In this document: piece after piece, positions 11,211-46,489 of the stretch | Position numbering within the stretch: the stretch's first letter is position 1 | Layout: every line of letters begins with the position of its first letter | NCBI RefSeq assembly: GCF_964194025.1 | Contig: NC_134472.1 | Coordinates: 70,866,001-70,912,489 of the forward strand | Length of the DNA stretch: 46,489 bases | Origin: Convolutriloba macropyga | Taxonomy: Eukaryota | Direction of reading: 5' to 3' | The notes under the pieces: model-generated | Told to the model about the DNA's origin: nothing | Seen by the model: the letters and a program-made list of their open reading frames with translations, nothing else | Databases searched by the model: none | Position numbers and translations under genes: made by a program

Positions 11211-11306
11211 ATGTCAACGTTATATAGCTACTAAGATGTCAACGTTATATAGCTCTGCATGTCAACGTTATATACCTCTGCATGTCAACGTTATATAGCT
11301 ACTAAG
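11211..11306. repeat. Minisatellite, 4 copies of 23-25 bp
   Basis: ATGTCAACGTTATATA(G/C)CT followed by ACTAAG or CTGC, in an A-B-B-A order. Confidence 0.95.
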
Positions 11307-12180: not shown

Positions 12181-12240
12181 CATTTTAGCCCATTTTAGCC
12201 CATTTTAGCCCATTTTAGCCCATTTTAGCCCATTTTAGCC
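12181..12240. repeat. Perfect 10-bp tandem repeat (CATTTTAGCC)x6
   Basis: Read directly from the sequence. Confidence 0.98.
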
Positions 12241-18450: not shown

Positions 18451-18479
18451 GTAATTCAGTGAATCGTTTTAATACCTTG

Positions 18480-19445
18480 AACCATCTTCCCAAGTAAAAA
18501 TTTAACCTCAGTTTGAAGTCTCAATTGATTTTCAATTCGTACACCTAAGTATTTTACCTCGGCTTTTTCAATAATATGAGAGTTGTTAACTATCAAAGTT
18601 TCATTCTGATGTTTTCAGACATTTTTGCTATATTCAGTGAACTCATTTTTTTAGTTTGTTTTTATTTCAATTTCTTTGCAATATTTGACAAGATTATTGG
18701 CGCTGGTAGCTAGTTTTGATCTACTTTCTTCTAGATTTTAATCAGACGTCAAAAATAACGTATCATCTGCATATTGTCTGAGTTGTGTATTGTTATCTTT
18801 GAAAATATAAATATCATAGATATAAAATTTTAAAATGAGTGGACCCCGCACCGTACCCTGAGACACTCCCCTATCAATTCTCAGTTCATCAGATGTAATG
18901 TTCCGTAACACTACCGCTCAGATTCGCTCGAATAAATAATTTTTGGTTAGCTGGATTTATGCGGTCTCCAAACCTAGTCTAACCAGTTCAGTTATGAGTT
19001 TTGTCCGGTTTACTGAATTGAAAGCCTTTGAGAGACCTATCAACACTGCTGAAACAAAGTTGTTTTCATTTGTTTTTTCCCTAATGATTTCAGTAATTTT
19101 CATTATTGCGTCTATGGTGAATCGTTTCTTTCAAAATGTATTTTGATTTTAACTGAAAAATTATTTTTGTTCAGGTAATTCTTGATTTGATCTCGCTAAA
19201 CAATTTCTATAACTTTAGCGAGGCACGGTGTGCTTGACATCGGACGGTATTTGTTAGGTTCTTCAGGGTCACCAGTGTTAAAAATTGGGATTATATGCGC
19301 TTTTTGAAGTTGTTTTGCAAAATTGCAACACCTGATGCAAATGTTTATCAAACGTTGATCATATGGCACAACGACACGACAGAAGAACCTAATGGCCCAT
19401 GAAGGAAATGATGACGTTTCCAGTGGCTCGTTTTACCCAAATATT
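18480..19445 (-). pseudogene. LINE reverse transcriptase, copy B
   Basis: KAHIIPIF, KYRPMS, LIGLSKAFNSV, RGVSQGTVRGP, QYADDT, VKYLGV; contains in-frame stops. Confidence 0.9.
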
Positions 19446-20119
19446 TAATTTGCATCTTTGTGATCTTTAAGACAAATGAACCGAAAATTAAATTATTATG
19501 GGTTATTATTGAAAATTGAGGGAATTTTGTATTTTGACAAGTGTATTTGCCAAGATCGAAAAATCTGTAATTAAGCAGATTTGCAATTTTCCTGGGTTCG
19601 GGAACAAACTCATTGAAAACGTTTCTTATACATTATATGTTTGGCTTTACTTTGTTGGAATTATGAATTTCAATAACAAACAAATAATTTTTTCTGTTCT
19701 GTCGTTTTTAGCAGCACCAATAAGGTTTTTATGAAATCTCCTAAAATTATTATTGTACAACTGACTTTTCAAGTTCTTGAGTTTAAAAATTGTTCCTAAG
19801 TTTTATCATTTAAATATATGTTTTTTTGTTCTCTTCTGCTTAGTCTGCTTCAATTCTCATTTCTTATATAGCGAAAGGGCTTTCTGGTTATTAAGAATGA
19901 AACTTCTTGAAGGGAGTATGAAGTTGAAGAGCTATTACAAATGTGTGCGTAAAAACTATCCAATAAAAGATTCGGATGGGAAATTTGATAGAAGCCGCGC
20001 CAATCTGTTGACTCAAGGTTTTTCAAAAATCTGCAATGTTATAACTGTATTCGTTGTAGAACAAATTGATAAATGGTTTTTTTTCTGGTGTTCAAATTAA
20101 AATTCAAAAAAACTTAATT

Positions 20120-24975: not shown

Positions 24976-25970
24976 TGTTGCGGCTGCTCAATAATCTCAG
25001 CGGAACCGATATATCACAGCCTGGTTCTTGAGTTTTACGCCGGCCTGGTTCTTCACAGGGTTCGATTGACTAACAAAATCGCAGAAATAATTAGTCGCTC
25101 GTACGTATTAAAGGACTGTAACTTTTATTTTGTTGATTGAAGTTAAGAAAATCCTTAGTGATAATCTATGTTCAATCTCGCCCTAAAGTTTGTAAGGCTT
25201 CAACCAGTGTTAGTAATTTTGCTAATTTCTCGTTAATTAAGCTCAATTAACTTAAAACTGGCAAAATCTTAAGATCTAGCAAAACTTATCAACAAAGACT
25301 AAAGTTGTTAAAGAATCAAATTTTAGTCAATTTGAGAGCCAACTGCTCTGTATAACAGTTTCTAGTTTCTAATGGCTTTAAATACAATTCGGTTTTACTA
25401 ATCAAACAATTCGGTAATATTAAATAAGGAAATATTTATCATTTATAACATCATTGTTACTTGTTTCTGATTGGTTAATCAAGAAAATGATTTAGGTCAT
25501 TGTTTACATAGTAAATGTCAAATTACTGCATTATCTACTTTTGTTGACATAAGCACTGATGGTTGTTACGTAACTCTAAATGCCTCAAATATACGATATT
25601 TGACCTTTAAAGATCACCTAAAGTATCATAAAATAAACAACTTAAGAAATTTAACAATAAATGACAAAATATTGAAAAATGCCAATTTTGCACTATATAA
25701 GTGCTAATAGCCACACTTGTGGGTCTAATGCTATAACGTTCGTTGGCTCCGTGAGTAGCTTAGAGGTAGCAAAAACCGTGTGCCATGACTTCGTGTTTCT
25801 CAGGTTTTCCTTCCAAAAATCGGGGGAGTGTACAAAATTTCGGTCGCAACTTGTAAAAATTTTCAGTTTTCACCATTTTTGAGTTTTAATTAATTCTAAG
25901 TTTTTTCAGTTTCAAAGGTTAATTCTTGCTGTCTGATGACTTTTGTAGCTGATTTGAAGTGGCGCTAACA
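24976..25970 (-). repeat. BEL/Pao 3' LTR (995 bp)
   Basis: TGTTG...TAACA termini; direct repeat of 31976-32968 with 9 mismatches in the first 100 nt. Confidence 0.95.
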
Positions 25971-25984
25971 TCGCCAGCCCTGTT

Positions 25985-27200
25985 TTAGATCTCGGAAACA
26001 CCATCGTAAGATACTGGCTCTAACTTTACGACTGGCCGGTTCAGTTCTCCAAGTGCCATTTTAACTCTCGCTGATCTCAGAACACCGTCGTTTTCAGTGA
26101 AGATCTCAATGATTTGTCCAAGTTTGTACTCAAATCGTTTCACAGAGTCATCTACTAGCCACACTAACTCACCTTCTTTCAGGTTTCGCACATGTTCTTT
26201 TGACCACTTCGGTCTTTGGTTCCTTTGTGGAAGGTATTCGCGAGTCCATCTTTTCCAGATCATGTCGGCACATGCTTCAGCCGCTTTGAAAGATTTTCTC
26301 AGGTTCACTGGATGGCATGAATGGTGCACTCGCCTTCTCTCGTCCTAGCAAGAACTGATTTGGCGTGAGTGCTGTCAAATCTTCAGGGTCGTCACTTACT
26401 GCTGTCAGCGGTCTTGCGTTGAGTGTTTGTTCCACAAGACACATTGTGGTGCTGAGTGTCTCGTCGGTGAGGCTTCGGTTGTCCAAGATTGCAATCATGA
26501 CCTTCTTGCATTTTTGAACAAGTCTTTCCCTGATTCCACCAAAGTGAGGAGCTCCGGGAGGATTGAATTTCCAAACAATCTTTTTCTGTGCTAAGTCACT
26601 TTCTATCTTAGCTTTGTACCACTCGTTCATGAATGCCTTCAGCAAGTTGGTTGCTCCAACAAAATTTGTTCCGTGGTCGCCGATGGTGGTACTTGGTTAG
26701 CCACGTACTGCAATAAATCTTGTCAGAGCAGCTAGGCATGACTCGGTGTCCAATGATTGTGCGACTTCGATGTGTACTGCTGTCGTTGTCAGGCAAGTAA
26801 AGAGGTAGCACCACTTTTTCAAGTTACGTCGCAGGAACTTCACTTTAAGGGTTTCGATGTAGTCAACACCGGTATGAGTGAATGGGAACACATGTTCATC
26901 AAGTCGTTCTCGAGGTAGATCCACCATCGGAGGGTGAATCGAGTTGGCGTTTTTGTGTCTGCATTTGATACATCTCGACTTGATTTTCCTTAATGCATTT
27001 CTTATTCTGATGATCCAGTGCTTTTGTTAAAGCATATTTCTCACATATTCTGTGCCATCATGTAGGTTGTCACGATGTGCTTTCTCTAACAGAATTTGTA
27101 CGACTGGATGTTTCGCGGTTAACAATATTGGGTTGTTTTGCATTGTAATCAAGGTTTGAATGCTTCAGTCGGCCTTTCACTCTAATTGTTCCACCTTACT
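25985..27200 (-). pseudogene. BEL/Pao integrase (frameshifted)
   Basis: HHCC remnant (RCIKC), DLPRERL, PFTHTGVDY, FTCLTTTAVHIE, FNPPGAPHFGG, LNARPLT, WKRWTREYLP, RPVVKL. Confidence 0.92.
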
Positions 27201-28860
27201 CTATGAAGGGTGACAGTTTGGTGATGTTCAATAGTTTGGAGATTTCTTTACTCCTTGCTATCGACATTGAAACATTCGGGAAGCTTTCGGTTTGAACAAA
27301 TCAAAACAGTATTTGTGCTGCTTTATGGATTTCGTCTGCTTTGAGGGGTCCTCTCTGCTTGACCGTAAACCTCATTTAGTAGGCAATGAAGTTTCTAATT
27401 CTGTTGACGGTACTGTATCGTCTCCAGTCAATTAGTTGGTCTAGTTCAGTTTCTGTGGCTACACTACTAGTAACTTGCTCAGCTTCAGCTTCGTTCACTT
27501 GGCACCACAGCTTTCGCCACTTTTATTCATCTGTCTGGAGCCATGCCGGCCCGTTTAACCACCTGAACTCCTTGAGACCTTCGATGGACATCACTTTTGA
27601 GCCAATATCTGCTGGGTTTTCGATGCCTTTGAAATGTCTCCATTGATTCATGGAAGAGTTTTCCAGTTTTTCTGCTGCCCTGTTGGCAACAAACACTTGC
27701 TGTTTCTTTTGAGCTGACTGTAACTACTGTAAGAGTGTTGATGAATCGGTCCAGTGATAAATTTTGTTAATACTGACATCATGTTCCCTCAAAATCTGCC
27801 TCCTGAGACGAACTCCGTAGACTGTGGCTTGAAGTTCTAACTTCGGAATCGTCGTGTGTCTGATAGGTGCTACACGGCATTTTCCTATTACGTAGGTGAA
27901 TTTCAACGTTGCTTCGTCCTGCAGATATGCCACGATGCACATCGCTTGTTCTGAAGCGTCTGTGGAAATGTGTAGTCTCAAATTTGTACAACCATTTTCA
28001 AAACAAAGTCGATTCATCGACATCATCCTTATTTCTCTCAACTCAGAGCACCAATCACTGAATAGTTTAGGTGTTCTGCTGACAAGTCTTTGTCCTATGC
28101 TTGTCCCATTGTTGCCCAAATGCTTTTGAGTAGAAACCGCAATTTTACCGTGAAGGGTGAGCATATCCCAATTGGGTCGAACATTGCTGAGACAAAAGAT
28201 AGGACAAATCTCTGAGTTACTTTTTCTGGAACTTCTTGCTCATTTCCACGACAGACTATGAGACCATCTGTGTCTATATTCCAGTTCAGTCCAAGTATTG
28301 AGGATGAGTGTGGCTCAGCCTTGAACGTTTTTACAACTTTCGTTGATCTGTCTGGGATTTGTGACTTGACTTCTTCGTCAGTCGTTATCCATTTTGTCAA
28401 ATTGAATCCACCTTTGCTGAGGATCTCTCTGATTTTCTGGTGTGTTGCAAACTCTTCTAAGTTTCTTGAGTTTGTGAGGGTTGATGACAGGATGATGTGG
28501 CAACTACCATTGAAGCTTGTCTCTGGTTTCGTTCAGTTCAACTTGTTGGACTTTGCAGACATAACCAGCTTTGACGTCAGTGTCAATGGTTTCCTGGGAA
28601 CGTTTTCGCAATATATCATCTTTCTCTAGGCGTCAGTCTAAGGGCATGGGTTGCCCCAGAGCAGAGTAGAAGTTATTTGGTAACTTCACTTCCTCTTCTC
28701 GCCATAGAAGTCCAACTTCGTATCTTTCACCTGTGAATCGAGTTGTTTGCTCCAATGTCTTGATCGCTCGTTGCTCGTCTTTTGAAAGTCCGGTGACATC
28801 ACAGTTTGAGACATAGAACTCGATATCCCAGTACTTACTCAACTGGTTGGCTACTTTATC
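27200..28860 (-). pseudogene. BEL/Pao RT flanks and RNase H (RT core deleted)
   Basis: RYEVGLLW, LPHHPV, RRVCN joined directly to GGFNLTKW; then ILGLNW, FDPIG, TDASEQA, GKCRVAP, TIPKLELQA, WTDS. Confidence 0.9.
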
Positions 28861-31800
28861 ATCTGCAATGGATTTTGCTGTTGTGGCAAGAGCTGCTGCC
28901 TGTTTCGCTGGTAGCAGACCACGTAAGGCCCATTCTATTTACGATTTCACTGCCCATGGTGCAGTTTTGTCGTTTGACTTCTTGAATTCTAATGGGTGAT
29001 GGATGTTGTAGCAGTCTGGTGCAAGAATTTCTTGAACTTCGTTTAGATTGTAGCTCTTATTTGGCAAGTTCTTCAGATGGAAGTCTGATTTGGAAGTCTG
29101 GTCACCCAACTTCAGTTTCTCGAGAACATAGAATTGCACTGTTGTCAATGGTTGAGACTTCTTGTGCGTTGAAACCACTATCGACACTATTTCCGTCTTG
29201 ACATCTTGTGATTCTTGGATTCCTGCTACTCACAAAGATGCTTTTCGGCCTTGCAGCTGCAGTGTAGATACAATTGACCTGTCCACGAATGAGATTGAGG
29301 ATCTCGTATTACACATTGCCAGCACGCTCAGGCTGTGGTTTCCAATCATCAGTTTTACACGCACTACAGGGATTCCTACTTGTGCGATCATTGTTGCTAC
29401 TGCTGTCGTAGCATCTGAGGCACTTGTTGTAGCCTCCTTCTTTGAGAAGTCAGTGTGCTAAAGTTTGTTGCGCAAAATTTTGTTGTCGTTCACATTTGAG
29501 CACGCTGCAAGTTCTGTTTTTGCAATCCTTTGTTTGAACGATGACCACGTCTCAGGAAAATGAAACACAGTCTGAACTTCTGCACATGTTCTCGTCGTTC
29601 ATTCAGCTTCCTTGATTTGAATTTCTGGCAACTCCAGATTGCGTGCTGTCTATTTTGAACGTACATAGAATCATCAACATTGGATGCAAAAGTATTAGTT
29701 TGCTGTTTCTCACCGTTTTGAAGCTTAGGGTTTGTTTGGGCTAACAAGTCTTCAAGTATGGAAGCAGTTGATTCTAACCATTCTTTGAAAACAATCGAGA
29801 TTGCTGCTAGTGGTCGATGATCCTGTAGATGTCGTACCCACTGCTCTTTAAACTGAGAGGAAAGTTTACTGGTTGCTGAACTCAAAACTCTCCCCAACTC
29901 CAAATCATGCTGAAATCCGAATCGAGTCAAAACGTTAACTCTGTATGTGACTATGTTTGAAAATCGAAAAATGCTACTGGAATCATCGTGTCTAACTGGA
30001 GTATGTGTGTATGTCTTCTTGAGTTGAGATTCAGCAATGACTCTCGGTCTGCCGAAATTTTTGCAGAGAATGTTGCAGGCTTGATAGTATGACTTTGAGT
30101 TGAAACCCAGTCCAGAAATTGCAGCTTTCGCCCGACCAGTGAAGCTAATCATCAGATACTGCATCTTCTCAGTATCGCTCCGCCGCTTTTGATGCACAAT
30201 GACATCTAAAAGATCTGCCCATTCGGGCCACTCCAATGGGTCTCTTGAGAATTCCGTTAGCTTTGTTCCGATTTCTCGCAATCCTCTTGGGTCACCACTC
30301 GGTTGGTAAATTACTTGTGGGATAGCTTGGCTCACTGTTGATTGCTTTTGGCTTTCCATCGATCTGCTGCGAGAATTGTGCTTGGGACTCTGGCTTGTCT
30401 GCCTGTTTTGGAACGCTGACGGTCCTTGTTGCTGGAAGGTCGTCTTGGGCAAAAACGTATGTGGTTCTGTCACCGTAATTGATTTAGGGATTTCTGGTTT
30501 CTTGAGAATACTCGAATCTTGCAGTTGTGCTGAGAAAAGTCCTGCACCTGGTTGGAACAACGGTGTAGTATTCGGGTAGGAGCTGAAACGTTTGTCACCC
30601 CTGTCCTGTGTGACATTCTCAGGAGGTTCGATCACAACATTGGGAGATAGTGGTCGACTAGGGACAGAATGTTGGGCCACTCAGTTTGCCCAGCCTGCAG
30701 TTCTTTCAAGATTGCGTCTTGATCCAACACTTTCTAAGTCGTCTACCTGTGAGCCAGATACTCTTGAACTTCCTTTTGTCAGTTCAATTTCCATGCGCCT
30801 TTGCTCTTCGTCGTCTTCAGCTTTATTTCTTTCGTTTTCGAGCTCTCGTTCATGTTGTCGCAAACGTAGCTCGTCTTCTTGTTGTTGTAACTTCAGACGT
30901 AATTCCTGTTCTTGTGGTTCCTTTCGTCGACGTAGTTTGATTTCTTCACGCTTCTGTTCTAACTATATTTGCCGCTCTTGCAGTTGTTGCTCTGTCTCTT
31001 TCTTAGCTCTTAGGTTTTCTAGCTCCATTTCTTCAATCTGTCGTCTTCTCGATGATCGCGAGTTGGCGATACTGGGTTTTTTTTCTGCTTCCTTGTGTAG
31101 CAGAATGCCTTAAAGAGACCTCGATGTTCTCTTCAGTGTTCTCTGCTGCTCCATTTCCTGTATCAATTATGGTCTCGTTTGGGTCTTTATCACCAGCCGA
31201 TAAGGATGACACTAATGATGTTTGGTTTCCACAATCCTTGCTCTGCCCGTACTGCTCGATCAGGTCTCGATAGTGACTCCTAAAATTGCTGAAATCCACA
31301 AGTTCTCGGGAGCGATATTCTTGCTTTATCGTTTGAATTGATTCTGCGTAGATTTCATCTAGTTTTTCGACTAACCGTTCCACCTGATTACACAATGTCT
31401 TTTTGGAGTCCCTTAAGTTTTCAGTTTTTAACTTCTGCTCCAAACTTGATAGTTCACTCTCAATTTAGTGAGCAGCTTTCACTGTTTTGTATGCTCGAAA
31501 TGTGTCTTCACAATAATCGACGAATTCTGTGCAAAACCTCTCATTGTCTCGGAGAAATGGTATTTCGTCAACTACCTATCTCAAATCTTTGCTCTTTTCT
31601 TCTAACATACGCTTGGTGTCATTGTCGAACGAACGCTTCTGAATACTTTTGTTTTAATAGTGATCTTTGCTGTTTTTTGTTGGCGGCTAACTTGTCGTAC
31701 GTCTCGAGGAAGACTTGATATGCACTGTTGGCTGTCATTGTTTTGTTTTGTGTCAAGTAGGCTTCTTGCTCGGTGAGGCGTCTGGAGAATTTGAATAGGT

Positions 31801-31890
31801 CAGCTTCCTCCTTCTCTAACGTCTTGAGTTGACCACCCGTCTTCTAATCAATTGTTTTCAATTGTCTACTGGGACTTTTGCTGGCCATCG
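28860..31890 (-). pseudogene. BEL/Pao gag and aspartic protease (disrupted)
   Basis: Coiled-coil N-terminus; FSRDPLEWPEW...EKMQYL...GRAKAAI gag core; decayed Cys/His knuckles (HAIWSC, CF..LRRGH); protease site decayed to LAMCNTRSS near 29300. Confidence 0.85.
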
Positions 31891-31955
31891 TAGAGATTTT
31901 GTTCTGGTCCAACACAATGAATCGAAGATTCGTTGCTGATCGCGTTGTTGTTGAT

Positions 31956-31973
31956 GTCCGGGTCGGCGTGCCA
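31956..31973 (-). promoter_or_regulatory. Primer binding site of the BEL/Pao element
   Basis: TGGCACGCCGACCCGGAC begins 2 nt after the LTR-terminal CAACA on the - strand; tRNA identity unresolved. Confidence 0.8.
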
Positions 31974-31975
31974 AA

Positions 31976-32968
31976 TGTTGCAGCTGCTCCAAAGTCCCAG
32001 CAGAACCGATATATCACAGCCTGGTTCTCGAGTTTTACGCCGGCTTGGTTTTTCACAGGGTTCGATTGACTAACAACCTCGCAGAAATAATTAGTAGCTC
32101 GGACGTAATAAAGGACTGTAACTTTAATTTTGTTGATTGAAGTTAAGAAAATCCTTAATGATAATCTATGTTCAATCTCGTGAAGTTTGTAAGCCTTCAA
32201 CCAGTATTAGTAATGTTGCCAGCTTCTCGTTAAGTAGGCTCAACTAACTTAAAACTCGCAAGGTTTTAAGATCTAGCAAAATTTAGCAAAAAAGACTAAA
32301 GTTGCTAAAGAATCAAATTTTAGTCAATTTGAGAGCCAACTGCTCTGTATAACAGTTTCTAGTTTCTAATGGCTCTAAATACAATTCGGTTTCAGTAAAC
32401 AAACAATTCTTTTAAATTAAATAAGCAAATTTTTATCATTTATAACATCATTGCTACTTGTTTCTGATTGGTTAATCAAGAAAATGATTAAGGTCATTAT
32501 TTACATAGTAATTGTCAAATTACTGCAATGCTTGCTTTTGTTGACAAAAGCACTGATGGTTATTACGTAGCTCTAAATGCCTCGAATATACGATATTTGA
32601 CCTTTGATGATCACCTAAAGTATCATAAAGTAAACAACTTAAGAAATTTAACAATAAATGACAAAATATTGAAAAATGCCAATTTTGCACAATATAAGTG
32701 GTAATAATCGCACTTGTGGGTCTGATTTGATAACGTTTGTCGGGTACGTGAGTAGCTTAGAGGTAACCCTAACCGTAAGCCATATCCTCGGATTTTTGGG
32801 TTTCCCTTCCAAAAATTCGGGGGTGTGTACAAAATTTCTGTCTCAACTTGTAAAATATTTCAATTTTGACCGTTTTTGAGTTTTGACGAATTCTAAGTTT
32901 TTTTCAGTTTCGAAGGTTATTTCTCGCTGTCTGATGGCTTTTCTAGCTGAATTGAAATGGCGCCAACA
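31976..32968 (-). repeat. BEL/Pao LTR (993 bp): 5' LTR of the main copy and 3' LTR of a truncated tandem copy
   Basis: TGTTG...CAACA termini; PBS on one side, integrase end on the other. Confidence 0.95.
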
Positions 32969-33380
32969 TCACCGGGCCTGTTTTCGATCTCGGAAACACC
33001 ATCGTAAAATACTGGCGCTAACTTCACGACTGGCCGGTTTAGCTCTCCATGTGCCATTTTGGCTCTCGCTGATCTCACAACACCATCGTTTCCAATGAAG
33101 ATCTCAATGAGTTGTCCCCGTTTGTACTCACAACGTTTCACAGAGTCATCTACTAGCCACACTAACTCGCCTTCTTTCAGGTTTCGCACACGTTCTTTTT
33201 ACCACTTCGATCTTTGGTTCCATTGTGGAAGGTTTTCGCGAGTCCATCTTTTCCAGATCATTTCAGCATATGCTTGAGCCGTTTGGAATATTTTTTGAGG
33301 TCATGGTAGCGTTCACTGGCATGAATGGTGCACTCGCGTTCTCTCGTCCTAGCAAGAACTGATTTGGCGTGAGTGCTGTC
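32969..33380 (-). mobile_element. 3' end (integrase C-terminus) of a second BEL/Pao copy
   Basis: Paralogous to ~25971-26376; encodes LKEGELVWLVDDSVKRCEYKRG...RPVVKLAPV. Confidence 0.93.
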
Positions 33381-33382
33381 TA

Positions 33383-33613
33383 GTGACATTTATGGCATTG
33401 ATAATGAGCATTGAGGATAATTACATTGGGTATACTGGCATTGGGTATAATGACATTGGGTATGCTGGCATTGGGTATAGTGACATTGGGTATGCTGGCA
33501 TTGGGTATAATAACATTGGATATAATGAAATTGGGTATAATAAGATTGGGTATGCTGGCATTGGGTATAATAACATTGGGCATAATGGAGTTGGGTAAAA
33601 TGCCCTGACACCG
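33383..33613. repeat. 15-bp minisatellite (core CATTGGGTAT), partly 30-bp dimeric; probable end of a non-autonomous DNA transposon
   Basis: About a dozen units alternating GGCATTGGGTATAAT and GACATTGGGTATGCT, closing with GCCCTGACACCG. Confidence 0.85.
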
Positions 33614-34109
33614 ATTTACCAAATATTACTAGGTTTATGGATGTCATTTGACAAAACAGCCATTTGGTGACTTGGACGACGAATTAGAAGACACCATTTC
33701 CAAAAAAGAGGCTCCCAAATAAACACCAGAACAAACTGTCGATTAACTTTTTGGTAGGAGGCGCTGGATTGACATGATACATAATACTACGTTTTAGACT
33801 TTTTCCCTGGTCAACTGCATCTTTATTAACCTGCCGCGAAATGCCCAACTTTTTCTTTCTATGAGAGCGGCCCCTTGATAAAAGTGTGCTTTAAAACGCA
33901 ATTGAAGCCCGTGTTCACCGAAATGTTTGTCAAAACAAATGCTTGTGCCTGGTTCTTCAAATAGGGATCCCAGGCCGTTTGTTCGAAGTAAGAGCTGCTC
34001 AAGGGTTGAACTTCCGACGCAACCTTTTAGTGATATAATAATTCCAAAATTTCAATATGAACATTTATTTTTCTTGCATAAATGTGAAGGAAAAAGTTTG
34101 TACATCAAG

Positions 34110-34248
34110 GAATGGGTGCTATGCCTCGACATCCTGCCATGATGAATGGAGGAGGAGGTGGGGGTGTTGCCAACATGAGTATGATGCCTATGCAGAGTGC
34201 TAACTTCAGGGCGGGAGATACTTCCATGGTCAACAGATTCCCAACAAG
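34110..34248 (+). CDS. Exon of the host gene (GMGAMPRHPAMMNGGGGGGVANMSMMPMQSANFRAGDTSMVNRFPT)
   Basis: GC-rich open frame, Gly/Met-rich like the 46086 exon; weak CATCAAG acceptor (phase 1) and AAG|GTTACT donor (phase 2). Confidence 0.72.
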
Positions 34249-35136
34249 GTTACTTATTCACGCCTGAATGCATACATTCGATGTCTGAGTGGTATGTGTA
34301 TATTTAAACAGGTTCAGAAAATTGTCTTGTGTTTGTTAATGATACCAGCCAATGGAAGCATCGACAATTGATTTTGGTGTTGTCCTAATGTTAAGAAATG
34401 AATGATTAACGTTAACCTTATAACAGTGCTCTAGTAAGTTGGTAATCTCAGCTTACTTCTGTTTGAAAGCATCATTACGGAGTCAAAGTTTTTGTAATAC
34501 AGCGATTTCTTTAGGAGCTAGGAGCTGTTGCTCAATGGCATCTATAAGATTGCAAAAAATGATAACATTTCATGGCAACGGATAGATGTTCGTTGCGCTT
34601 TTAATCAAAAGTTGATTTAAAAATGCTGAAAAAATGCGTTTTACAGAATTTAAAGAAGACAGATAACAGAGCGAGACTTATTCGGCCTTATTTTTCATTT
34701 TTTAAATTCTGCTAGCCCGAGTTGAAATTTCTTTCATACAAGGATCATATATGGTTTCATACTGTCCATATTTGTTTTCTTAATACGATCTTAGTATCAA
34801 TACCAAGAATCATTCATTATTTTTATTGATAAAACATCACTTATATGATTCCCCGGCATCACTTAGTGATCCGCCAAAAACACTGCTGTGCATAACGTAT
34901 TGCAAAATTGGTTGTTAGAGACCAAGTCATTTTATAAGACTAAAGTTTTCGTATTCCTTTGTATACCTATAAAAGCCAATTTATTCCTATAAATGATTAT
35001 TTTTAGAAAAATGCTATTTGTTTTGGATCTAAGTTTTATTTTCATTTCTAAATACGTATTAAATCTGAAGTTACTTTTAGTACAGCCAAATAGTAAAATG
35101 TGGGCTGCATAAACCATATAATAAATTTAATTGCCC

Positions 35137-35679
35137 TGTAGAAATTGAAACTTATAGGAAAACGAAAGTTAAAGAAATTTGAACTAACCTTTAAATTTTC
35201 TCGATGAACCGTATGAACGGAAATCGAAATTAGACCAAAGAGAAACGTAGTTATTTGTACAGATCAAGATTAGAGTTGTGATTTGATTCTCTGAAACTAA
35301 GTTGGTACCAAATTTGAGAGAAAGATATTATTCGGACCTGATAATCTTACTAGACGAAACACCTTGAAGGTATACTAAAATTATTATTCAAAGATTTAGG
35401 CATGAACACTTGAACTGGAACGCATTTTTCGGACCTTTCATAATACGTACGGATATACAAAACCCTTAGAAATCAGGCCACAGTTGGGGCCCGTAAAGAG
35501 TATTTCCCCAAACGATTAGGCTAAATTAAGACCGCAAGACTCAATTATCTCAAGTTATGAAAAGATAAGCTAGAACAAACACGGCTAATTTTTGAGTCTT
35601 TTTCTTAACTCAATTTCCTGATTCTAAATTCAAAAATTTTCTACAAATTGTTGGGATTTGATTAGGGAAATTCCCGACA
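35137..35679 (+). repeat. Putative 5' LTR of the Gypsy element
   Basis: Starts TGTAGAA and ends CCCGACA one base before the PBS; 35640-35669 is identical to 44931-44960. Confidence 0.65.
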
Positions 35680-35680
35680 T

Positions 35681-35698
35681 TGGCGACCACAGATGGAT
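35681..35698 (+). promoter_or_regulatory. Primer binding site of the Gypsy element
   Basis: TGGCGACCACAGATGGAT follows the terminal CA; complementary to a tRNA ending GUGGUCGCCA, compatible with an Arg tRNA (not verified). Confidence 0.85.
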
Positions 35699-36133
35699 TT
35701 ATTGTTAGAAAAAGTCACAGGCATTACTGTAAAAACTAGCGGAAAAAGGGGAATACTTAGATAGAAAACAAAGAACGCGAGCAGGGCTCATGTACCGTCA
35801 GTGAAACTTCAAAAAAAACTTTGAACAAAAAAGAAGAGATTTTTTACGAAACAATAGAGAAGAAAGACCGATCATTATCAAAGTAGCTTACAGCAGGACC
35901 GTATAAATCAAAACTGATTGCTAATTGGAACAAAATTTAAAAGAAAGTACTTAGAAGTACTGCTAATCCAAATTGTTATTTTATAGTTTTTAGATTCTGT
36001 TTCTTTGTCTTTTTTGTAAAATCAAAAAATCAATGACAGGGGGGTTCTTGAGACAAAAAAATCAAAAGCCTTAAAGTAAAATACTTTTTTTAGGAAGAAA
36101 CCAAATAACGTTTCTTACGTGAACACAATACAA

Positions 36134-37050
36134 ATGGCAAACGCAAACAACAACGCCCAGCAGCAAATCGTAGTGGCTGCTCCACCTTTAACTCCCTTAC
36201 GTTATCCGAGCAGAGATTTCGACTGCTTCAAGCGATAGACACGCCATTTCTAAGCAATGTCTCAGGCATGACGCGAGGCGGCGAGCGGTCCTCCCCATTT
36301 GCTTGAACAACTACGCACTTGACGAGTACTACAACCTCCCGAATCAGTACTTCAATCAAGTACAAGGACAACCAGCCCCATTGATCGAGCGTGTGCTCAA
36401 TGCCCTCAACAACCGAATTAGAGATTTTCCTAATGCGAGGAGTGCCAGAACTGAGTTCAAGAACCTCCAGCAAAATGAAGGGGAGAACATACAAGAGTTC
36501 TCACGAAGAGTCCGAAAACTGGGCGAAGCAGCAAACGCCCATTTGAATGCATCCGGAAGGCAAGAAGCAAATAATGACGCTTTTTTGAAAGATCATTGGA
36601 CAGTGAGATACGATAAAATCTCCTCAAAGAAGATCTGGATACTTTCAATGTATCCGCGCAAAGAACCATAGAACTCGAAGCAATTTCGAAAAATGAGAAC
36701 GCCCGATACCGACCAAGACGGACAGGACACGTGATTTGGACGCAAGGCTGCGACAAAGAAAATGGGAGTAAAACCGAAATCCGAGATATATCGACGAATG
36801 TGGGCATGGGACTCAGGGACTTGATGGAAAATCAGATCAGGAGTTTCAACAAATTGTTGGAACAGCAGAATCCTCACACGAAAATCATGGAAAAGATTCT
36901 AGATACACAGAGCCTGTTTTTAACAGAAATTGCTCCAGCCCCTAGAGCGTCGCGCAGACCTGCCAGAGTTGATCGGAACAGAAACGTACCATGATATCTT
37001 GGTCAGGACTGGGGGCACTTTGCGAGTCGATGCCCGAAACGAAGCACTAC
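36134..37050 (+). pseudogene. Gypsy gag (disrupted)
   Basis: ATG at 36134 (MANANNNAQQQ); capsid-like FKNLQQNEGENIQEFSRRVRKL; decayed knuckle GHFASRCPK. Confidence 0.85.
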
Positions 37051-37099
37051 CCCAAAAAGACAACAAGATAGAAACGTCGAAACACAGCCAGTTGTTAAG

Positions 37100-39065
37100 A
37101 TGATCATGCAGAGAACAAAACGACATGAGATCTTTAACAGTGCAAGTATCGAGAATTCTAGTGGTATTTTTGGATCTACTGTTTATGTTGATGCAAAACT
37201 GAACGGAAAGATGCACAGGGCACTGCTCGACACAGGCAGTATTGTGAATATTATACTGAACAAACATACAAACTTTATTCAACACCAATGTTACTGTCTG
37301 ACTTCCACGATACAGTCTTATCTGCAACAAACGACCCGTTACGTATTCTAGGAAAGTTCGCCGGAATTCTTGCATTCGGTCCGGGAACGGTTGTTCAGAC
37401 GGAATTTCTTGTCACCCCGGACACAGACGTACCGTTGATCTTAGGGACACCTATATTGCAAGAAAATCAAATGTCGATTGACTTTCAGTCACCGCAACAA
37501 ATGATGGGCACAGAAAGCAGTACAGTCAATTTGAAAGTTCTCTGGAAAACAGAAAATCCGGACAAGTCAAGGCGTGCGGCGCGGAGATTGCGTTTCAATA
37601 CCACAGACCTGGAGAAATAGAAACAAACAATTGTCCCATGCCAGCATCAGAGGACGAGGTGGAACAAATTTGCAACCAGGTGAAATCAGACTCGACAGAC
37701 AACGAAACTGGAATTAAGATAATGAGTACCGTTGCCACTTTTTGGGATGTTTTTGCCCTAAACGATGCAGAGTTGGGTCAGACACGTTTAGTGGAGCACG
37801 AAATTGATACTGTAGACGCTGGCCCAATTAAACTTTCTCCCTATCGATTAGCACCCGGGAAGATGGCAGTTGTGAAACAGGAATTAGACGATATGCTCTC
37901 CAGGAATATCATCCGGCCATTTAAAAGCCCGTACAGTGCGCCAATTGTACTTGTAACAAAGAAAGACGGCAGCAATATATTGTGTGTAGACTTTACGAAA
38001 CTCAACGAGGTAGCTAGAAAAGATGCTTTCCATTACCCAGAATCGATCAAGTCCTTGATCATCTTCACGGAGCTAAAGTTTTCTCGAGCCCTGATTTAGC
38101 CTCCGGATACTGGCAGGTCCCACTAGCAGAGTCAGCGATACCAAAAACTGCATTCGTTACCCCTGACGTTGGTCATTACGAGTTCCTGCGACTACCATTT
38201 GGACTGTGCAATGCCCCAGGCACAATTCAACTGTTTGATGACAGCAATCTTTAACGAGTACTTAGTCAGTTTTGTTCTCATATTTCTGGACGATTTTCTA
38301 GTCTTCAGCAAGTCAGAGGAAGAACACGAAAAACATCACCGAATTGTGTTTGAAGCCCTTTGGAAAGCAAACTTGAAACTTAAGCCAAAGAAGTGCAAAT
38401 TATACCAAAACTCAATTTTGTACTTGGGGTACAAACTCACTGCCGAAGAAATTTCACCCGATGAGGGAATAATCAGAGCCCTGAAAGAGTGGAAAAGACC
38501 GGAAAAATTACAGAAGTGAAATCGTTCATTGGATTCTGCAGTTACTATCGTCGATTCGTAATGGACTTTGCCGGCATAGAAAAACCACTACATGAGATCA
38601 CGAAGAAGAACCGGAGATTCACCTGGACACCAGATTCTCAAGCTGCTTTCGAGATTCTGAAAAGAGCAATGATCGAGAGCACGGTTTTGTCGAATCCAGA
38701 CTGCAGCTCAGCTTTCGTGCTAAATACAGACGAAAGTGACAACAGTTTGGGAGCAGTACTCTCGAATGTCATAGATGGGGTTGAGTATCCAGTGGCGTTT
38801 GCAAGCAGATTGCTACAACAATCAGAATGTAAATATTCAACAACGAAGCGGGAGGCACTAGCTGTAATTCAGGCAATGAAGTGGTACAAAACATTCCTAT
38901 GGGGTACAAACTTTGTGTTCAGAACAGACCATGCTTCACTTAAATGGCTGTTCAGGCAAAATAACGATAGAATGATTTCGAATGTTACAACGGCTTCAAG
39001 AATTTGACTTCCAGGTAATTCAACGTCCTGGTGAGAAACATGGAAACGCAGATGGATTTTCACGA
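37100..39065 (+). pseudogene. Gypsy protease, reverse transcriptase and RNase H (frameshifted)
   Basis: ALLDTGS; [45 protein letters not shown]; TDESD..LGAVL, ASRLL, REALAV, TDHASL, NADGFSR. Confidence 0.95.
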
Positions 39066-39992
39066 CAGTGTAGCCAGTCTCCCGATTTGACTGAGAAGGA
39101 GAAGAAAGAGATATTCGGCCAAAGCCCCCCAGCTGAAAAATTAGGCGACGCACTGGGGCATATCTAAATGGTGACTTCACCGGAATCCTACCCAGATTCA
39201 TCAACAGATATAGAACTAATCCACGCACCAGCCCCCAAAATTCAAATGGCAAAAACTCTAACGTTCATCAGGCATGAGTACGAAGATGAGACTACAGAAT
39301 GGATTGAAACGGAGACGGATTCAGATTTCGGACCTCAGAACACAGAGTGGGACTCCGAATTACCCCATCAAAATAAAACACTACCGCAGGACAGCGACAA
39401 TGAGGACGAATATGAAATTCCTTACAGTATGAGCTTCCGGAAGCTCTATGAAGCTGTGTCCAAAGAACGGGCATCCGGAGAAAAATTTAGACTTGACTGG
39501 TCGAACGACAAGGAGAGTGATTAATCCGGCCAAACCGAGGTTGGTGAGACCCAGATGACCACAGAATCTGTCGATTTCAACCAAACCGAGATAGAAGTTC
39601 CTGAAACTGACGATGGAAGTAACTACTGCAGCCATAACAATTTTCGAAGAGTTCAAATGACACCAAATCTAGGTCAATCCAGCAAACATGAAGCAAACCT
39701 TCCCAACAACAACGCGAAATCAATGGAAATTGTTCTAGAGGAGGGCAGAGAAGCGGCAAAAGAACATCTGGCGCAAGACCCTGCAATTAAACTTGTTTTT
39801 CAAAGCGCCAATGCTGACAAAACCGGCAAGCAAACGTCCCTTGGCAAACTTAACTTGAAGAAAACAGCAGCTATTGCAGCCGGAGAGGATGCGCGGGCAC
39901 TCTGGTGTGTGTGGAAACAACTAGAATTGGCAGAGTGAGTTCTCTACCGAAAGTGGCTTATTGAGGGAACAGATTCTAATGTCAGACAGTTT

Positions 39993-41255
39993 GTGGTGCC
40001 CAAAAGTGTACGGAAAAAAGTGCTGGAACAACAACACGAGTCTAAGATATCAGGGGGACACTTCGCTTTTCAGAAGACACTCGACAGATCTAGGCAACGT
40101 CTCTGGTGGCCAAATATGAGCAAAGACATCGAGAGGAAATGTGAAAACTCTTTGACGTCTCAGTCGCAATCTACAGCTCGGAAAAAACTTAAAGCACCAT
40201 TGCAGAAAATCAACGTAGGAATCCGTTTCAACAAAATTGCCGCAGACATCCTGGGGCCAGTGACCAAAAAAAAAATAGGAGGGTACAAATATATAATCGT
40301 ACTCACTGACTACTTCACAAAAATTGTAGTCAGTACACCCTTGCAAAACACAACTGTTGAAGCCGTGGCAAGAGCAATCTTGGAAAAATGGATTCTTCTG
40401 TTTGGGGCCCCAGATTCAATTCACACTGACTGGGGCTCAAACTTTTGCAGTGAACTTATCTTGGAACTCTGCAAGCTTTTCGGAATAGAAAAAACAAAGA
40501 CCTCGCCTTACCACCCTCAAGGCAACGGCATGGTTGAGCGACACAACCAGGTCATTGCTGATGCAATTTCGAAATACCGTGCGGGAAATCCCAACACTTG
40601 GGACGAGATGCTCCCATATCTGAGCTTCGTCTACAACACAACAGTGCACAAAAAAACAGTGCATACACTCTTCTCATTAGTTTACGGACAAGAGTGCAAA
40701 TACCCAATCGATTTACTCCTACCTAGGACGCCAGGTCACGAAATTCAAAGTTATGAATTCACTCGATGGCTGGAGGAACAATTTCTTGAAGCACACATGA
40801 ACGCCAGAGAAACCTTGGGATGCAATCAAGAGAGGCAAAAAGACCGATACCACAAAGAAGTCTTTGGAGAAAGCTACCGCAAAGGTGATCAAATTTGGCT
40901 CTTCGCTCCCCACAAAGCCAATTCGAGAAAGCTCTTTTTGCCGTGGGATGGCCCCTACGTTGTGTTAGAGAAAATTTCGGATGTTCTTTACAAGATATCT
41001 AAAACGGGGAGTTCTAACAAATGGCAGATTGTACACTACAGTAGGCTGAAACCCGTGAAAGAGGAGCCTAATCAACGCAGGATATTTAGTCGACCTTCAA
41101 CAGGAAGACGACAGCCAACTGGAGAAGCAGTAGAAGACTTGGAAGAAACAGCAGGTCTTGGACTTTTCACAGAAAAAACTACAAGAAGACTTTCGTCGAA
41201 ACACGGAAAATCCTCGAAAGACCTCGAGATACAAATGGATGGAGGAAGAAGATGA
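39993..41255 (+). pseudogene. Gypsy integrase (420-aa open stretch; C-terminal tail frameshifted, continuing to ~41595)
   Basis: H..GGH zinc-finger remnant, ADILGP, TDYFTK, HTDWGSNF, YHPQGNGMVER, GPY/F motif (WDGPY), VHYSRLKP; no chromodomain seen. Confidence 0.95.
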
Positions 41256-42099
41256 TCTCTTCCACACTCTGTTTGTGGAACAGCAGAAAACTTCTGCGAT
41301 TAGACGAGAAGCAAACCACGAGATGCCGGACATCGAGGAATTACAGGCAACTGAACTGACGGGACTTGATGAGAGAGAGAGCATGACAGAAGCCAACCTG
41401 GAACCCTCTCCCCCAAGTATCGAGAAAACGGACCCACCAGAGACAACGCATCAACACAGCACTACCCAGGATAAGACTTTCAATACAGAGTTCAAAAACA
41501 TCCTTAGACCTCATAAGGCGAAAGGGTTGAAACCGACAACAATGACACTCAATATAGAAACACCGAGCCCAAGCCTACTCTCTAACATGGAATGACGCCC
41601 CAAGCGGGCAAAGCGATTCCCCAAAAGATAAGGAATGGACTACGAATGAAAACAATTTTCATAGCGCACATGACGAACCTACTAACAAACTCGACTCAAA
41701 ACTTTGAAACGTTACCAAAATGTACCGTGAACACTTAGATAGAGTGAATTACTGTGGACTAATATAATTTTCTTCTTCCAAGCCACTCGCTAAACACTCA
41801 AAAAAAGCGATGAAAAGGTTCGAAATGTCTTGATAAAGACTTTAAATAGCACTTTAAGCATAGTAACATTCGACTATATACGATAATCATATAGATTTTT
41901 CTTAGTTTAATTAAGGTCTCCAGAGCATTAAAAAAAATTTCTGAACAAAGCAAATGAGTCATGCAAAAAAACATAAAGTTTGAGCACCAGAACCAATTTG
42001 AATACAAAACCTAGTTCCAAAAAATAATTGCACAGTTTATTTAAACAAAACTGAAAACTCGCCGCAAGTGCAGTTTACCCTAACTTTGGCAATATTTAG

Positions 42100-44065
42100 A
42101 TGAAGTGGTGCTATCTATTTCTTGTTATCCGTTTGACTCTAGCAGATGAAGTGACAACTCGAGCAAACATTGTGTTCGTCTCACGGATTCCGATGGCTCT
42201 AGCTGATTCAATTGAACTGATAGAGGTTTCAGTGCACTTTCCTAAACCCTTGGACATTGACTGGAGCGCTTTTAAAAAATTTTTGAAAATCCTCAAAGAC
42301 ATGGAAATTCACGCGTGGAGAGAGACGCAGTGGGTATACTGCAATAACCAAAAATTAAACGGCATCCCGGAAAACAGTCAGAACACCCTGACCACATCGC
42401 TACAAAAAGACATTTCGGAGATCGAAGAAGAAAGGACTCAACTGATTCAAGATATGAAGATTTTTGCAAATTCAACGGAGCTCTTGAACAAGAAGAGAAC
42501 GTCAATAACTTTGCTTGCAGCGGGAGCTACCATCGCACTTCTTTTGGAGCCCATACTGGAAAAACAGCTTGCAAAGTGCTCTCCATCTTTCATCTTTGTC
42601 AGGACTCAGAAGAAAAAATGCGACAAATTACAAGGCACTCGGACCGCACGGACTTCGAGCTGCACCATTTATCGAGCAACACAGATGACGCAGTACACAT
42701 CTTGAGCAACAAAAATTAAAAAACAGCAGGAACACATGAAAACTTTTTGAACTATACAGATGGGAACTTCGGAACCGTAGAGCAAGCCATTAACAACCTT
42801 GAACACGATATGAAACAAGTACAGCGGGCCCGAATCTGCGACCACAAGTGGAGCGACGTGTTCACCTTTTTTCTCAAAACGCAAAGCGTGGTCAATGACC
42901 TTTCCTTCGCAATAGTGTCTCTTCATTCAGAAGTGCAATCCTTTAAGTATGAACTCAAGCAATTCAATAACAAACTTCGGCAGGCTTTCCAGGAGATGTC
43001 AAACGAAAGAATACTCTCAAGACATGTTGAACCAGACAAACTGCTAGGAATCCTACAACATCCTCCTTTCCATCACAAAACGATGTCAATACCACTCCCT
43101 TATGTTAGTCTCTACTATGAACTTGAGCTACTTCGTAATGATTTTATTGGGGACAATGGGCTCCTCTTAAAAAACGAACTCCCGACGTCAAGTCAAAGCC
43201 CCATCCACAAAGTATTTAAAGGAATATCCCTTCCGCAACCTATTGCAAATTCAACTACAGCGTCAGTGCTTGTACCCGAGCGTGACTTGTCGTCTCGGAA
43301 GCTACGACTAACTTTGCTGAAGTTGACGAAGCACAGATTCTTTTTTGTCAAGGTTCGAAACGACTAAAACAACACTGTTAACAACCCTTCTCAATAACTA
43401 GAAATCAACAAGCCGGTTGTCTGGTTAGTGTATTTTTTGGTCACGAAGCAGCTGTTTTAAAGATCTGTAAATTTGATATCATCCACCTTCCAATAATGCC
43501 TACTGCAACCTATTTAGCAAATTCAAAATTTCTTATTTCGTCAGCAACCACAAAATACTGGATAAATGAAATCACTGATAAATCCTTAAAGAGCAGTAGA
43601 TTGAACGGATGTCGAAGTTGCATCATACAACCTCCTTATAACGGGAGAACTGAGATATCTAATGGAGGCTTGGTTTTGCGCCCCTCAACGGACAACTGTC
43701 AGAACGAAACTGGGCTGGTTATGACCGTAGGGCTCAACCCTCTACTTGGGGAAGCGTTCAAACTGCCGATACCAGAAAACCACGAGCTGAATTCCTCAAG
43801 TACCACAATGGACTACCAAAGAAATGTAATAGAACATGTCAAAGTCGAACTACAAGCAAAACCACCACTTGAAATAGACACCACAACGTTCAAAAATTTG
43901 GTACGAGATTTTCATCGCTGCAATCAAGAGCGACAAAGACAAAACACAGCGGAAGGAACTGCTAATAATGAGGTAGACTTTTTAGTACTGTTTTTATGGG
44001 TTATCACTTTTTTCTCAACCCAAATAATTTTACTCTGGAAATGGAAAAAACTATGCATCAAATAG
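42100..44065 (+). pseudogene. env: Envelope-like class I fusion glycoprotein (frameshifted, ~650 codons)
   Basis: Signal peptide MKWCYLFLVIRLTLA; basic site NKKR followed by hydrophobic TSITLLAAGATIALLL; heptad-like helices; Cys-rich region; N-glycosylation sequons; TM FLVLFLWVITFFSTQIILLW plus a basic tail. Confidence 0.85.
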
Positions 44066-44113
44066 AGATAGACTAAAGAGAATAAAGAAACATAAAATAG
44101 TTAGGAGACTTTT

Positions 44114-44968
44114 TGTAGAATAGACTTAGTTCGATTCTAGCTTTGATTTAGTTAGGAATAAGGTCTGTGGTAACTTTGCAATCTTTAATTTATAAGTCTA
44201 GTATTTTCATAAGTTAGAGTTTGGCTTTAATTAAAAACATAACATAGCTACTTAGGAACATAGGTGGTTTTACAGAGATCAATGACTATTAGGTTAAGTT
44301 AAGATCTCTCAGGACTTTGACATCAAGAGAGTGACTGCAGACACCTTCAACACGAGAAATTCTAAGCGTATCAATCGCCGCGCTTCTTTGGAGACTGAAT
44401 AAAGAAGCCACTCTGAGGGTAGGGTTGCCTGCTCGTGGAAGACTTGGCGAGTAAGACTAACCCACGTAGTATGGATGGGCGAACCAAGTAGACACTTAAC
44501 ACGGTCTGCAGTAACCCTGAAGTGCCTGAGGAGCAATAGATCTTGCGTTCTTTTTTCAAGTGGTTGATACTCGTCTGGCCGGGTTGTGGAGTGAACTACG
44601 ACGAACGACGCTTCCTCTTCAACTTTAGTAGTCTTTAGGGTCACAGATTGATCTCTTAGTATAAGTTAGTTGCATTGAGAACTTGGTATACTTCTCAATC
44701 ACAGTACCACCTATTTTGATAATTGTTTTCTTTTTTCCATACACTTAGCTTATAGTTGAGGCTAGAGAACTCTGAATCCAACTTTATCATTACTATTTTT
44801 AAATAGTGCTGCCTGCAATCTGAATCTTAGGAGTAATGGAAGGGCCTGGTATAACCCTCTCTGTTATATAGGATAATAGGCTTGCGAAGTTACCACTACT
44901 CTAGTTCTCTTTTTTTTGAATATTCAAGTATCTACAAATTGTTGGGATTTGATTAGGGAATCTCCCCA
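44114..44968 (+). repeat. Putative 3' LTR region of the Gypsy element
   Basis: TGTAGAA at 44114, AATAAA near 44398, terminal block shared with the 5' LTR. The start is uncertain and there is no clear PPT. Confidence 0.5.
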
Positions 44969-45336
44969 CCCCAGTTTTTCAAATTCGGCTTGCCCTCTGA
45001 TTACATTATACTGGAATTTTTGGCATCAGTCAATGTTTTATGTACCATACGTGACCTTGTATCCTTTCCTAGAAGTTTCACCAGAATGAGAACTATACAG
45101 TTTTCGGCTATCAATTTTTTAAATGATTTTCGTATGATTTCCAAGAAATCATATATGATCTTTGTATGACTACTAAGCAATCATGCAAGTCATATATGAC
45201 CTAGTTTGACTACTAATATTCATATATGACCTGCAATGAAATCAAAAACATTTGTATGATCGGTGACCCGGTAAACGGCCATTTGGTTAGATTGGCGTCC
45301 TCTGTTGCTTTAAGAGTGCTTTTTTTTTACTAAGAG

Positions 45337-45963
45337 CCCGGGTCACTCATCATAAAAAATTGCATGATTTCATACAATGTCATAGGTCATTCTTAGTGAT
45401 CGTACTAGGTCATATATGATGTGTATGATGCTTTCCTGCAAATTATACAGGGATCAGACAAAACCTCTAAAAGCCAAAAAATTTTATCTCTTTTATTTTC
45501 GGAAGAAGCTGAAAAATTTCTTGGAAATTAAACGAAGTCATATATGACATAAAAACTTTGACTGGTGCCACAAATTCCCGTATCACAAATACTGATAACA
45601 GTATTGTGTACGATTCCTAGTAATCATCCGGGCCAAAGTGAGCAAAAGAGTGCAGAGAGTGTAAAAGATTACAGACAGGAGTGTAAATGCATAATAATTT
45701 CTTAAAATTACACTCGTAAAATACTTTTTTCTACTAAAAAGGAGTGGAATACGCATCAGACCCTAATCCCCACTAATTAGGGGTGGATTAAGGTTGAAAC
45801 CTCGGCCCGGGCACACTAATATCATATATAGGTTCCTGCTGATCATACAGGGTTTATATTTAATTTATTTGGTCTCATAATAGGATCGTACTTAGAAATT
45901 GAGTATGGACAGAATGAAATCATATATGACCCTTGTCTGAAATCAGAGAAACTTCAACCCGTG
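45337..45963 (-). mobile_element. Non-autonomous DNA element copy B, inverted relative to copy A
   Basis: CCCGGGTCAC end mirrors 45190-45271; 45866-45963 is the reverse complement of 34716-34805; ~180 bp extra segment between CCGGGC repeats at ~45628 and ~45807. Confidence 0.72.
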
Positions 45964-46085
45964 AGTACCTAGATCTATAACACAACGTAATTTGAGTCTT
46001 GACACTATCAATTCAGGTTTCCATTGAAAACCGATTTTTTTTATCAAATGAGGAACAGTAGTCATTATTTTCTATTTGCTTTCAG

Positions 46086-46262
46086 TATGCGCCCACCGGG
46101 AGGATTCAACATGTCCGGAGGTGGAATCACGAGCAGACCAGGAATGGGAGGAACAAGTGGGATGTTTGGGGGAGGGGGAGGGGGAGGAGGAATGAGTAAT
46201 TCAATGGCAATGATGGGCAGACCCCAATCGGCCCAAATGATGGCACCCTCCTTCTCTAGTAG
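46086..46262 (+). CDS. Exon of the host gene, Gly/Met-rich low-complexity segment (SMRPPGGFNMSGGG...MMAPSFSS)
   Basis: Strong TTTCTATTTGCTTTCAG acceptor and AG|GTACGT donor; its phase-2 start completes the AG left by the 34248 donor (AGT, Ser). Confidence 0.85.
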
Positions 46263-46371
46263 GTACGTCCAGAAGCAATTACCTCAGTTGATAATTTGTT
46301 CATACTGAACTAATTTTCATCATAAGTTTTCATCATGGAAAGATGACGGGTTTTTCCGCATTACAGCCCAC

Positions 46372-46489
46372 TCCCCCCCCCCCCCCCGGAAAATATAGAA
46401 TCACCCCACATTATAGTACATTAAAGCAATAAAAAGGAGCGGTTTTATAAGTTATAAGACCTCTAAGCGCAGGGAGTACAACAGCAACA
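46372..46489. repeat. Poly-C + GAAAATATAG...CCCCACATTAT motif, same family as 11841-11880 and 12250-12297
   Basis: Motif match by eye; truncated by the window end. Confidence 0.5.

Follow-up and report, generated by a model that had tools for sequence, protein, structure and literature searches.

How can a single long terminal repeat (LTR) retrotransposon be bounded by two LTRs that have only a short terminal block in common? This question is raised by a Ty3/gypsy element located between positions 35137 and 44970 of a 46,489-nt stretch of DNA on contig NC_134472.1 (hereafter the window). By its sequence, the element appears to be a decayed and dead env-carrying gag-pol-env copy. We propose that this provirus from an env-carrying Ty3/gypsy clade is probably a single, old recombinant, each of its ends coming from a different LTR family and the two families sharing a short U5-terminal block.

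The two LTR bodies and the shared block

The ends of the element are composed as follows (window positions):
35137-35645, plus strand: left LTR body, 509 bp, from TGTAGAAA to TTTCTACA, with a perfect 8-bp terminal inverted repeat and no exact AATAAA
44114-44936, plus strand: right LTR body, 823 bp, TGTAGA...TCTACA, with a perfect 6-bp terminal inverted repeat, TATAAG at 44191 and AATAAA at 44398
35640-35679, plus strand: left copy of the shared block, consisting of TCTACA, AAT and a 31-nt TG...CA hairpin unit (35649-35679)
44931-44970, plus strand: right copy of the shared block, identical to the left copy up to 44960, with its end at 44968 or 44970
35133-35136, plus strand: weak candidate for the left target-site duplication (TSD), GCCC
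44969-44972, plus strand: weak candidate for the right TSD, CCCC, applicable only if the element ends at 44968

The initial annotation had reported no similarity between the two bodies and had proposed a comparison of the two end regions. Run as BLASTN and pairwise alignments, this comparison gave no end-to-end homology and bore out the absence of similarity: the block was the sole colinear LTR match of 34700-36200 against 43600-46489, and left against right body under 12 aligner settings (local and global, both strands) reached z values of only -0.33 to 1.37 against 200 shuffles each. Likeness of the 20-100 nt directly upstream of TCTACA, or directly after TGTAGAA, also stayed at shuffle level, with 92 to 715 of 1000 shuffles scoring as high. 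Both bodies nevertheless start with TGTAGAA, found four times in the window including 35137 and 44114, and end with TCTACA; the common layout already described, in which TGTAGAA...TCTACA is followed by AAT and a short unit, is present at both ends. AATAAA is confined to the right body, about 200 nt downstream of the TATA-like box, and this body starts 48 bases downstream of the env stop, the proper place for a 3′ LTR. Since the block is shared, the bodies cannot be aligned, the start and end motifs are the same and the right body is sited where a 3′ LTR belongs, the layout is real. Two long direct terminal repeats are expected of Ty3/gypsy elements (Metaviridae), and here only 40 nt are common; what is missing concerns the present copy and not the family behind it.

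A simple explanation for two such bodies would be a pair of complementary deletions from one LTR of ~1.3 kb that held both. Such an LTR would be ordinary in size, given the ~990-bp LTRs of a neighbouring BEL/Pao element, and TGTAGAA and TCTACA could serve as microhomologies. However, this requires two separate events, each removing a whole body, with no overlap above chance left between the remnants; the breakpoints would also have to fall no more than 7 nt from the edge, and the start and end motifs have been retained alike in both units. We regard complementary deletions as very unlikely.

Two other candidate relations were rejected. The start of each body fitted its own end no better than that of the other body (17 vs 17, 13 vs 13). 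A long hairpin formed by the end of the left body and the block, together with a pairing of the left body and the leader, was striking in self-BLAST, scored z -0.76 to -1.2 against shuffles and was dropped.

The claimed identity of 35640-35669 and 44931-44960 was confirmed as an exact 30-mer, TCTACAAATTGTTGGGATTTGATTAGGGAA (30/30, 0 mismatches). These are its only two matches in the window at up to 3 mismatches, leaving no third copy, and 0 of 100 shuffles gave one; TGTTGGGA likewise occurs in the window only at 35649 and 44940. Ungapped extension of the 30-mer yielded 36 of 40 identical positions (35640-35679 vs 44931-44970), all four differences being confined to the last 10 nt (P ~0.002 for 4/4, by simple arithmetic and with the end chosen post hoc). 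Behind AAT, the left 31-nt unit folds into a hairpin of -11.4 kcal/mol (z -2.46; 3/200 shuffles as good), which the right copy of the block lacks (fold z +1.10).

A hairpin directly before the primer site resembles the U5 inverted-repeat stem of retroelements. TGTAG...CTACA ends combined with a short spacer and such a primer site are features that we take to recall the 412/mdg1 lineage, and distant database matches carry the name 'transposon 412'. In the simplest reading, TCTACA would be the older LTR end and the 34 bases behind it a U5 extension present today in both LTR types. According to the available part of PMC3601003, the short inverted repeats that terminate an LTR are the signals for integrase, and conservation is higher in R-U5 than in U3; an identity of 30 bases in LTRs that cannot otherwise be aligned exceeds what these signals and R-U5 conservation alone predict. 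An independent insertion of the block was also tried and rejected: the ATTG repeat framing it (35647-35650 and 35678-35681) largely follows from the two TG starts and is not evidence.

The outer limit on the right is less sharp. An end in register with the left CA falls at 44970 (CC) and leaves no TSD, whereas an end at CA 44968 gives CCC/CCC or GCCC/CCCC (3/4); ends at 44964 and 44969 likewise give CCC/CCC, and GCCC is matched at 3/4 by 2.2% of window positions. The TSD is thus weak because the right end is ambiguous within a C-rich run. TSDs of Ty3/gypsy elements are 4-6 bp long. GCCC and CCCC may be one decayed TSD, as initially suggested, but both the end and the TSD are softer than was then claimed, several ends in the C-rich run being suitable.

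Origin of the unlike ends

Canonical reverse transcription leads to two identical LTRs, even with an intermolecular first jump (PMC6894440, in its available part). Because the process ends with two identical LTRs, and because in an RNA copy the sequence common to the two units would lie at the start of the 5′ one and at the end of the 3′ one, rather than at the end of each, the unlike ends of the element were most likely assembled once.

The flanks probably belong to one intron, as they hold in-phase Gly/Met-rich candidate exons and the arms of an enclosing inverted repeat:
34090-34248, plus strand: probable upstream host exon, Gly/Met-rich, with a phase-2 donor; among the top 2 of 503 open stretches in Gly+Met
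46086-46262, plus strand: probable downstream host exon, phase-compatible with the upstream one; highest Gly+Met of 503 open stretches
34718-34806, plus strand: left arm of the enclosing inverted repeat, 72/94 (77%) identical to 45869-45961 on the minus strand, E 3e-15
45869-45961, minus strand: right arm of the enclosing inverted repeat, pairing with 34718-34806

The splice borders of both candidate exons, as identified by eye, are AG/GT and agree in phase; neither exon has a Pfam match, 103 plus-strand stretches having given one sub-threshold Pfam match. This arrangement suggests that the element sits within one intron. It also bears on an assembly mosaic, in which the 5′ half of one copy would be joined to the 3′ half of another via near-identical inner sequence. 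The region is rich in repeats and the source contig of the window's own protein is short (62,624 bp), conditions that favour such an error. However, flanks that look like one intron are not expected from a join between loci, and two LTR types sharing the block would still be required; we judge a mosaic improbable.

For the one-off recombinant that we favour, the preferred route, to which we assign about half of the weight, is inferred as follows. The left body would be an older LTR resident in the intron. An incoming extrachromosomal element of the right-body family would anneal to it via the shared block, and a single exchange would integrate this copy. From left to right, the product would hold the left body, the block, the primer site and the inside, then the right body and a second block, followed by the last bases and the flank of the resident LTR. 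Alternatively, the ends may have been combined by plus-strand transfer between two co-packaged genomes, a known mechanism that would need the primer site only, or by deletion between two same-direction elements in the intron. These three recombinant routes yield the same picture, and the present copy does not discriminate between them. Progeny of the copy, had it been active, would carry one body at both ends.

The resident-LTR route would account for the sharp identity tract with differences only in the last 10 bases on the right, as well as for the lost right hairpin, AATAAA in the right body only, the imperfect duplication and the single intron. Abrupt identity from TCTACA onwards together with end-clustered differences would look like a conversion tract. 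Bodies that cannot be aligned, yet each with apparent LTR-type ends, argue for a recombinant of two families, and many diverged sister lineages seem to exist as possible partners. A local precedent is also provided by the BEL/Pao element 2 kb away, which looks like an LTR-joined tandem or recombinant. Among the three origins initially put forward, recombination between LTR types therefore fits best, with the sharp 30-nt tract from TCTACA and the one-intron flanks, and deletions and a standing design are less favoured.

Several points weigh against a recombinant. No inner breakpoint is visible against the nearest multi-domain relative, which is 61-70% identical over reverse transcriptase, RNase H and integrase; relatives are too distant for one to be resolved. 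The 36/40 identity of the block is also what simple decay from an identical pair of copies could leave (P 0.55-0.98 for at most 4 differences at 4-11% divergence). The relatives, as possible partners, need not come from the same genome; neither body was seen at both ends of any element, nor was any sibling copy. Thirty bases are short for homologous exchange, the recombinant reading does not account for a block shared by two unalignable families, and the weak TSD counts on the same side.

If the block simply decayed, its near-identity would also be compatible with a standing architecture, in which different 5′ and 3′ bodies are normal and only a terminal repeat of ~40 nt is shared; every cycle would rebuild this layout through an early jump via the block and the use of a second RNA. 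The same start and end motifs in both bodies are in line with this scheme, and the nesting of TCTACA and TG...CA at the ends is unusual under either reading. However, canonical reverse transcription gives identical LTRs (PMC6894440, available part), and this conflict means that a two-body design would need a new mechanism. The left body would also need its own plus-strand primer, and 9 of the 19 bases preceding it are purines (a weak point, as these are host flank). Self-comparison found no split-direct-repeat layout or other internal repeat, and the right body by itself already has the signals expected of a complete LTR, a TATA-like box and AATAAA. We hold this architecture to be unlikely. 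The chances are equally low for an acoel env-Gypsy lineage with nested integrase-type LTR ends (an inner TCTACA and a 34-nt hairpin extension by the primer site), in which the block alone would be the terminal repeat and the bodies would be inherited or swapped as modules.

A layout common to many copies would run counter to the principle that both LTRs come out identical from reverse transcription, and would turn the 40-nt block into a compact signal open to testing; a standing modular design, if true, would represent an LTR retroelement whose two LTRs are allowed to differ. As a one-off recombinant, the copy would be a clean relic of an exchange between families of LTRs with only 30-40 bases in common. 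Such copies escape both LTR finders and LTR-age dating, which presume two alike repeats.

Unlike 5′ and 3′ ends are known from Ngaro/VIPER elements, which use a tyrosine recombinase and have an A1...B1-A2-B2 split-direct-repeat layout. DIRS/Ngaro is ruled out here by the DDE integrase and by the single short repeat, no second repeat pair appearing in the self-comparison. In soybean, related families reportedly exchange LTR parts by LTR swapping. In fission yeast, integrase-independent insertion of Tf1 at resident Tf2 LTRs proceeds by annealing of cDNA to an existing LTR through short homology and produces composite elements (PMC11042837, available part), as in our preferred route. Those cases involve homology of the primer-binding site (PBS)/polypurine tract (PPT) or of the LTR and give tandems, whereas here the outcome would be a single element with unlike bodies and a 30-nt joint. 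In the accessible text on Ty1/Ty2 hybrids (PMC3511429) and on the intermolecular first jump (PMC6894440), related families exchange LTR parts via shared sequence, as proposed here, but the partners are closely alike; moreover, first-jump recombinants end with two identical mosaic LTRs (PMC6894440), in contrast to unalignable bodies that differ within one copy. Interelement recombinants with and without TSD are described for Cassandra in the portion available of PMC4079214. Troyka/Kuafuorterviruses (PMC12440569, PMC11673190, both in part) are likewise LTR elements of marine animals, and a 3-bp duplication (CCC) can be read here; they were rejected, having CG...CG ends and neither env nor GPY/F as far as these sources describe them, unlike the present TG...CA element with its env-like gene and GPY. 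No comparable retrotransposon with unlike LTRs was found in the literature searched, which took in few subscription papers.

Interior of the element and its relatives

Between the two ends lie the following features:
35681-35698, plus strand: primer-binding site of tRNA-Arg type, 18 nt, 1 nt after the CA at 35679
36134-36994, plus strand: gag-like region in several broken frames, with a weak Retrotrans_gag match (E 0.008, below cut-off)
36995-41255, plus strand: pol, with protease-like motif, reverse transcriptase, RNase H and integrase with GPY motif, and with several frame changes and in-frame stops
42100-44065, plus strand: env-like gene of F type, in pieces, from ESM Atlas features
44074-44109, plus strand: purine-rich tract, an atypical PPT candidate (28/36 purines), with TTTT between it and the TG of the right body

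Within pol, Pfam matches were obtained for RVT_1 (4e-15), RT_RNaseH_2 (2e-27), Integrase_H2C2 (1e-15), rve (3e-11) and Integrase_p58_C (2e-12). The protease was called from a DTG motif and tblastn and had no Pfam match. With it, the Ty3/gypsy order protease, reverse transcriptase, RNase H, integrase is complete; the integrase is of DDE type with a zinc finger (Pfam domains) and a GPY/F motif (GPY in the translation), and a tRNA primer site directly behind the 5′ LTR is a further Ty3/gypsy trait. Frame breaks in pol are visible against relatives. The env-like pieces reached 0.94 to Baculo_F-bearing clusters and 0.90 to Fusion_gly clusters in the ESM Atlas, with low recognition values, and gave no Pfam match and no Protein Data Bank (PDB) sequence match. 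An acidic spacer of ~180 codons separates RNase H from integrase (39168-39938) and is partly absent from the nearest relatives; a long, poorly conserved tail follows the integrase (41134-42100). Rfam returned 0 matches over 34700-46100 and ARAGORN 0 tRNA.

Of 2162 candidates in the integrase search, 135 were relatives, and the best of those that are named came from the acoel Convolutriloba macropyga (60 and 70%). Among the relatives covering the integrase core (n=163), identity was 80-89% for 1, 70-79% for 10, 60-69% for 20 and 50-59% for 39. A quick tree was built from 91 of 164 integrase cores, rows below 45% identity being dropped except for a few outgroups, with database relatives only and without the reference set of PMC13524379. 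It placed the copy in a clade of many lineages, the nearest row being 85% identical, with an end branch of 0.077.

The F-env Ty3/gypsy errantiviruses of invertebrates described by Chary and Hayashi (PMC13524379, available in part) have the same LTR-gag-pol-env and protease-reverse transcriptase-RNase H-integrase order and an F-type env-like gene, as our copy probably does. They also share the tRNA-Arg-type primer site, in two polychaete F-env rows; the first 12 nt of ours match the Arg UCG/UCU end in supplementary file 1 at 10/12 (by eye). Those elements were chosen intact with LTRs >99% identical, whereas the present copy is broken with unlike ends. Acoels are not mentioned in the main text or the 7 supplements searched. 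Our results point to a clade of F-env Gypsy elements whose host is probably an acoel. This group was not found named in the searched parts of this 2026 survey and would probably be new as a host of such elements.

Sibling DNA was sought in bacterial and archaeal genome contigs. Of the 69 pattern matches, a single locus was confirmed, L001, which has a length of 5.3 kb and consists of pol without LTR. Chance open reading frames over the LTR ends, used as a proxy for other copies, gave one candidate and none scoring in one search, and in a second search two matches, both to long repeat-rich proteins unrelated to the LTR. A set of 242 proteins compared with both ends gave one marginal match, in the leader (E 0.047). 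None of these blanks bears on copy number. All that we say of the family's normal LTR structure is accordingly inferred.

L001 is itself a Gypsy pol relative (positions 1-5295, 54% in the best segment) that fills a 5.3-kb contig of a bacterial metagenome-assembled genome, where it is probably a eukaryote contamination. The L001 protein and protein P0128 carry a GDSL-lipase-type Pfam domain (PF13472/PF00657).

Neighbouring sequences

The BEL/Pao element lies at 24976-33380 on the minus strand, with DUF1759 and Peptidase_A17 domains and LTRs of ~990 bp that are 88.7% identical. An integrase tail of ~410 bp stands in front of its 5′ LTR and shares 88.2% identity with the tail found ahead of the 3′ LTR. 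From this layout, the element appears to be the remnant of an LTR-joined tandem or a recombinant, hence the divergence of its LTRs need not equal age. A 15-bp tandem repeat of 13.4 copies (33401-33602) directly adjoins the BEL tail.

On the other side of the Ty3/gypsy copy, a foldback element resembling a miniature inverted-repeat transposable element (45008-45583) is 61% self-complementary over ~600 bp, carries TCATATATGA motifs and is related to the arms at 34718-34806 and 45869-45961. Elsewhere in the window, degenerate tandem duplications at 14131-15585, 17737-19446 and 3635-4211 have periods of ~500, 990 and 300 bp with 77-87% identity, and perfect arrays are formed by a 10-bp unit in 6.5 copies (12177-12241) and a 23-bp unit in 3.8 copies (11211-11300).

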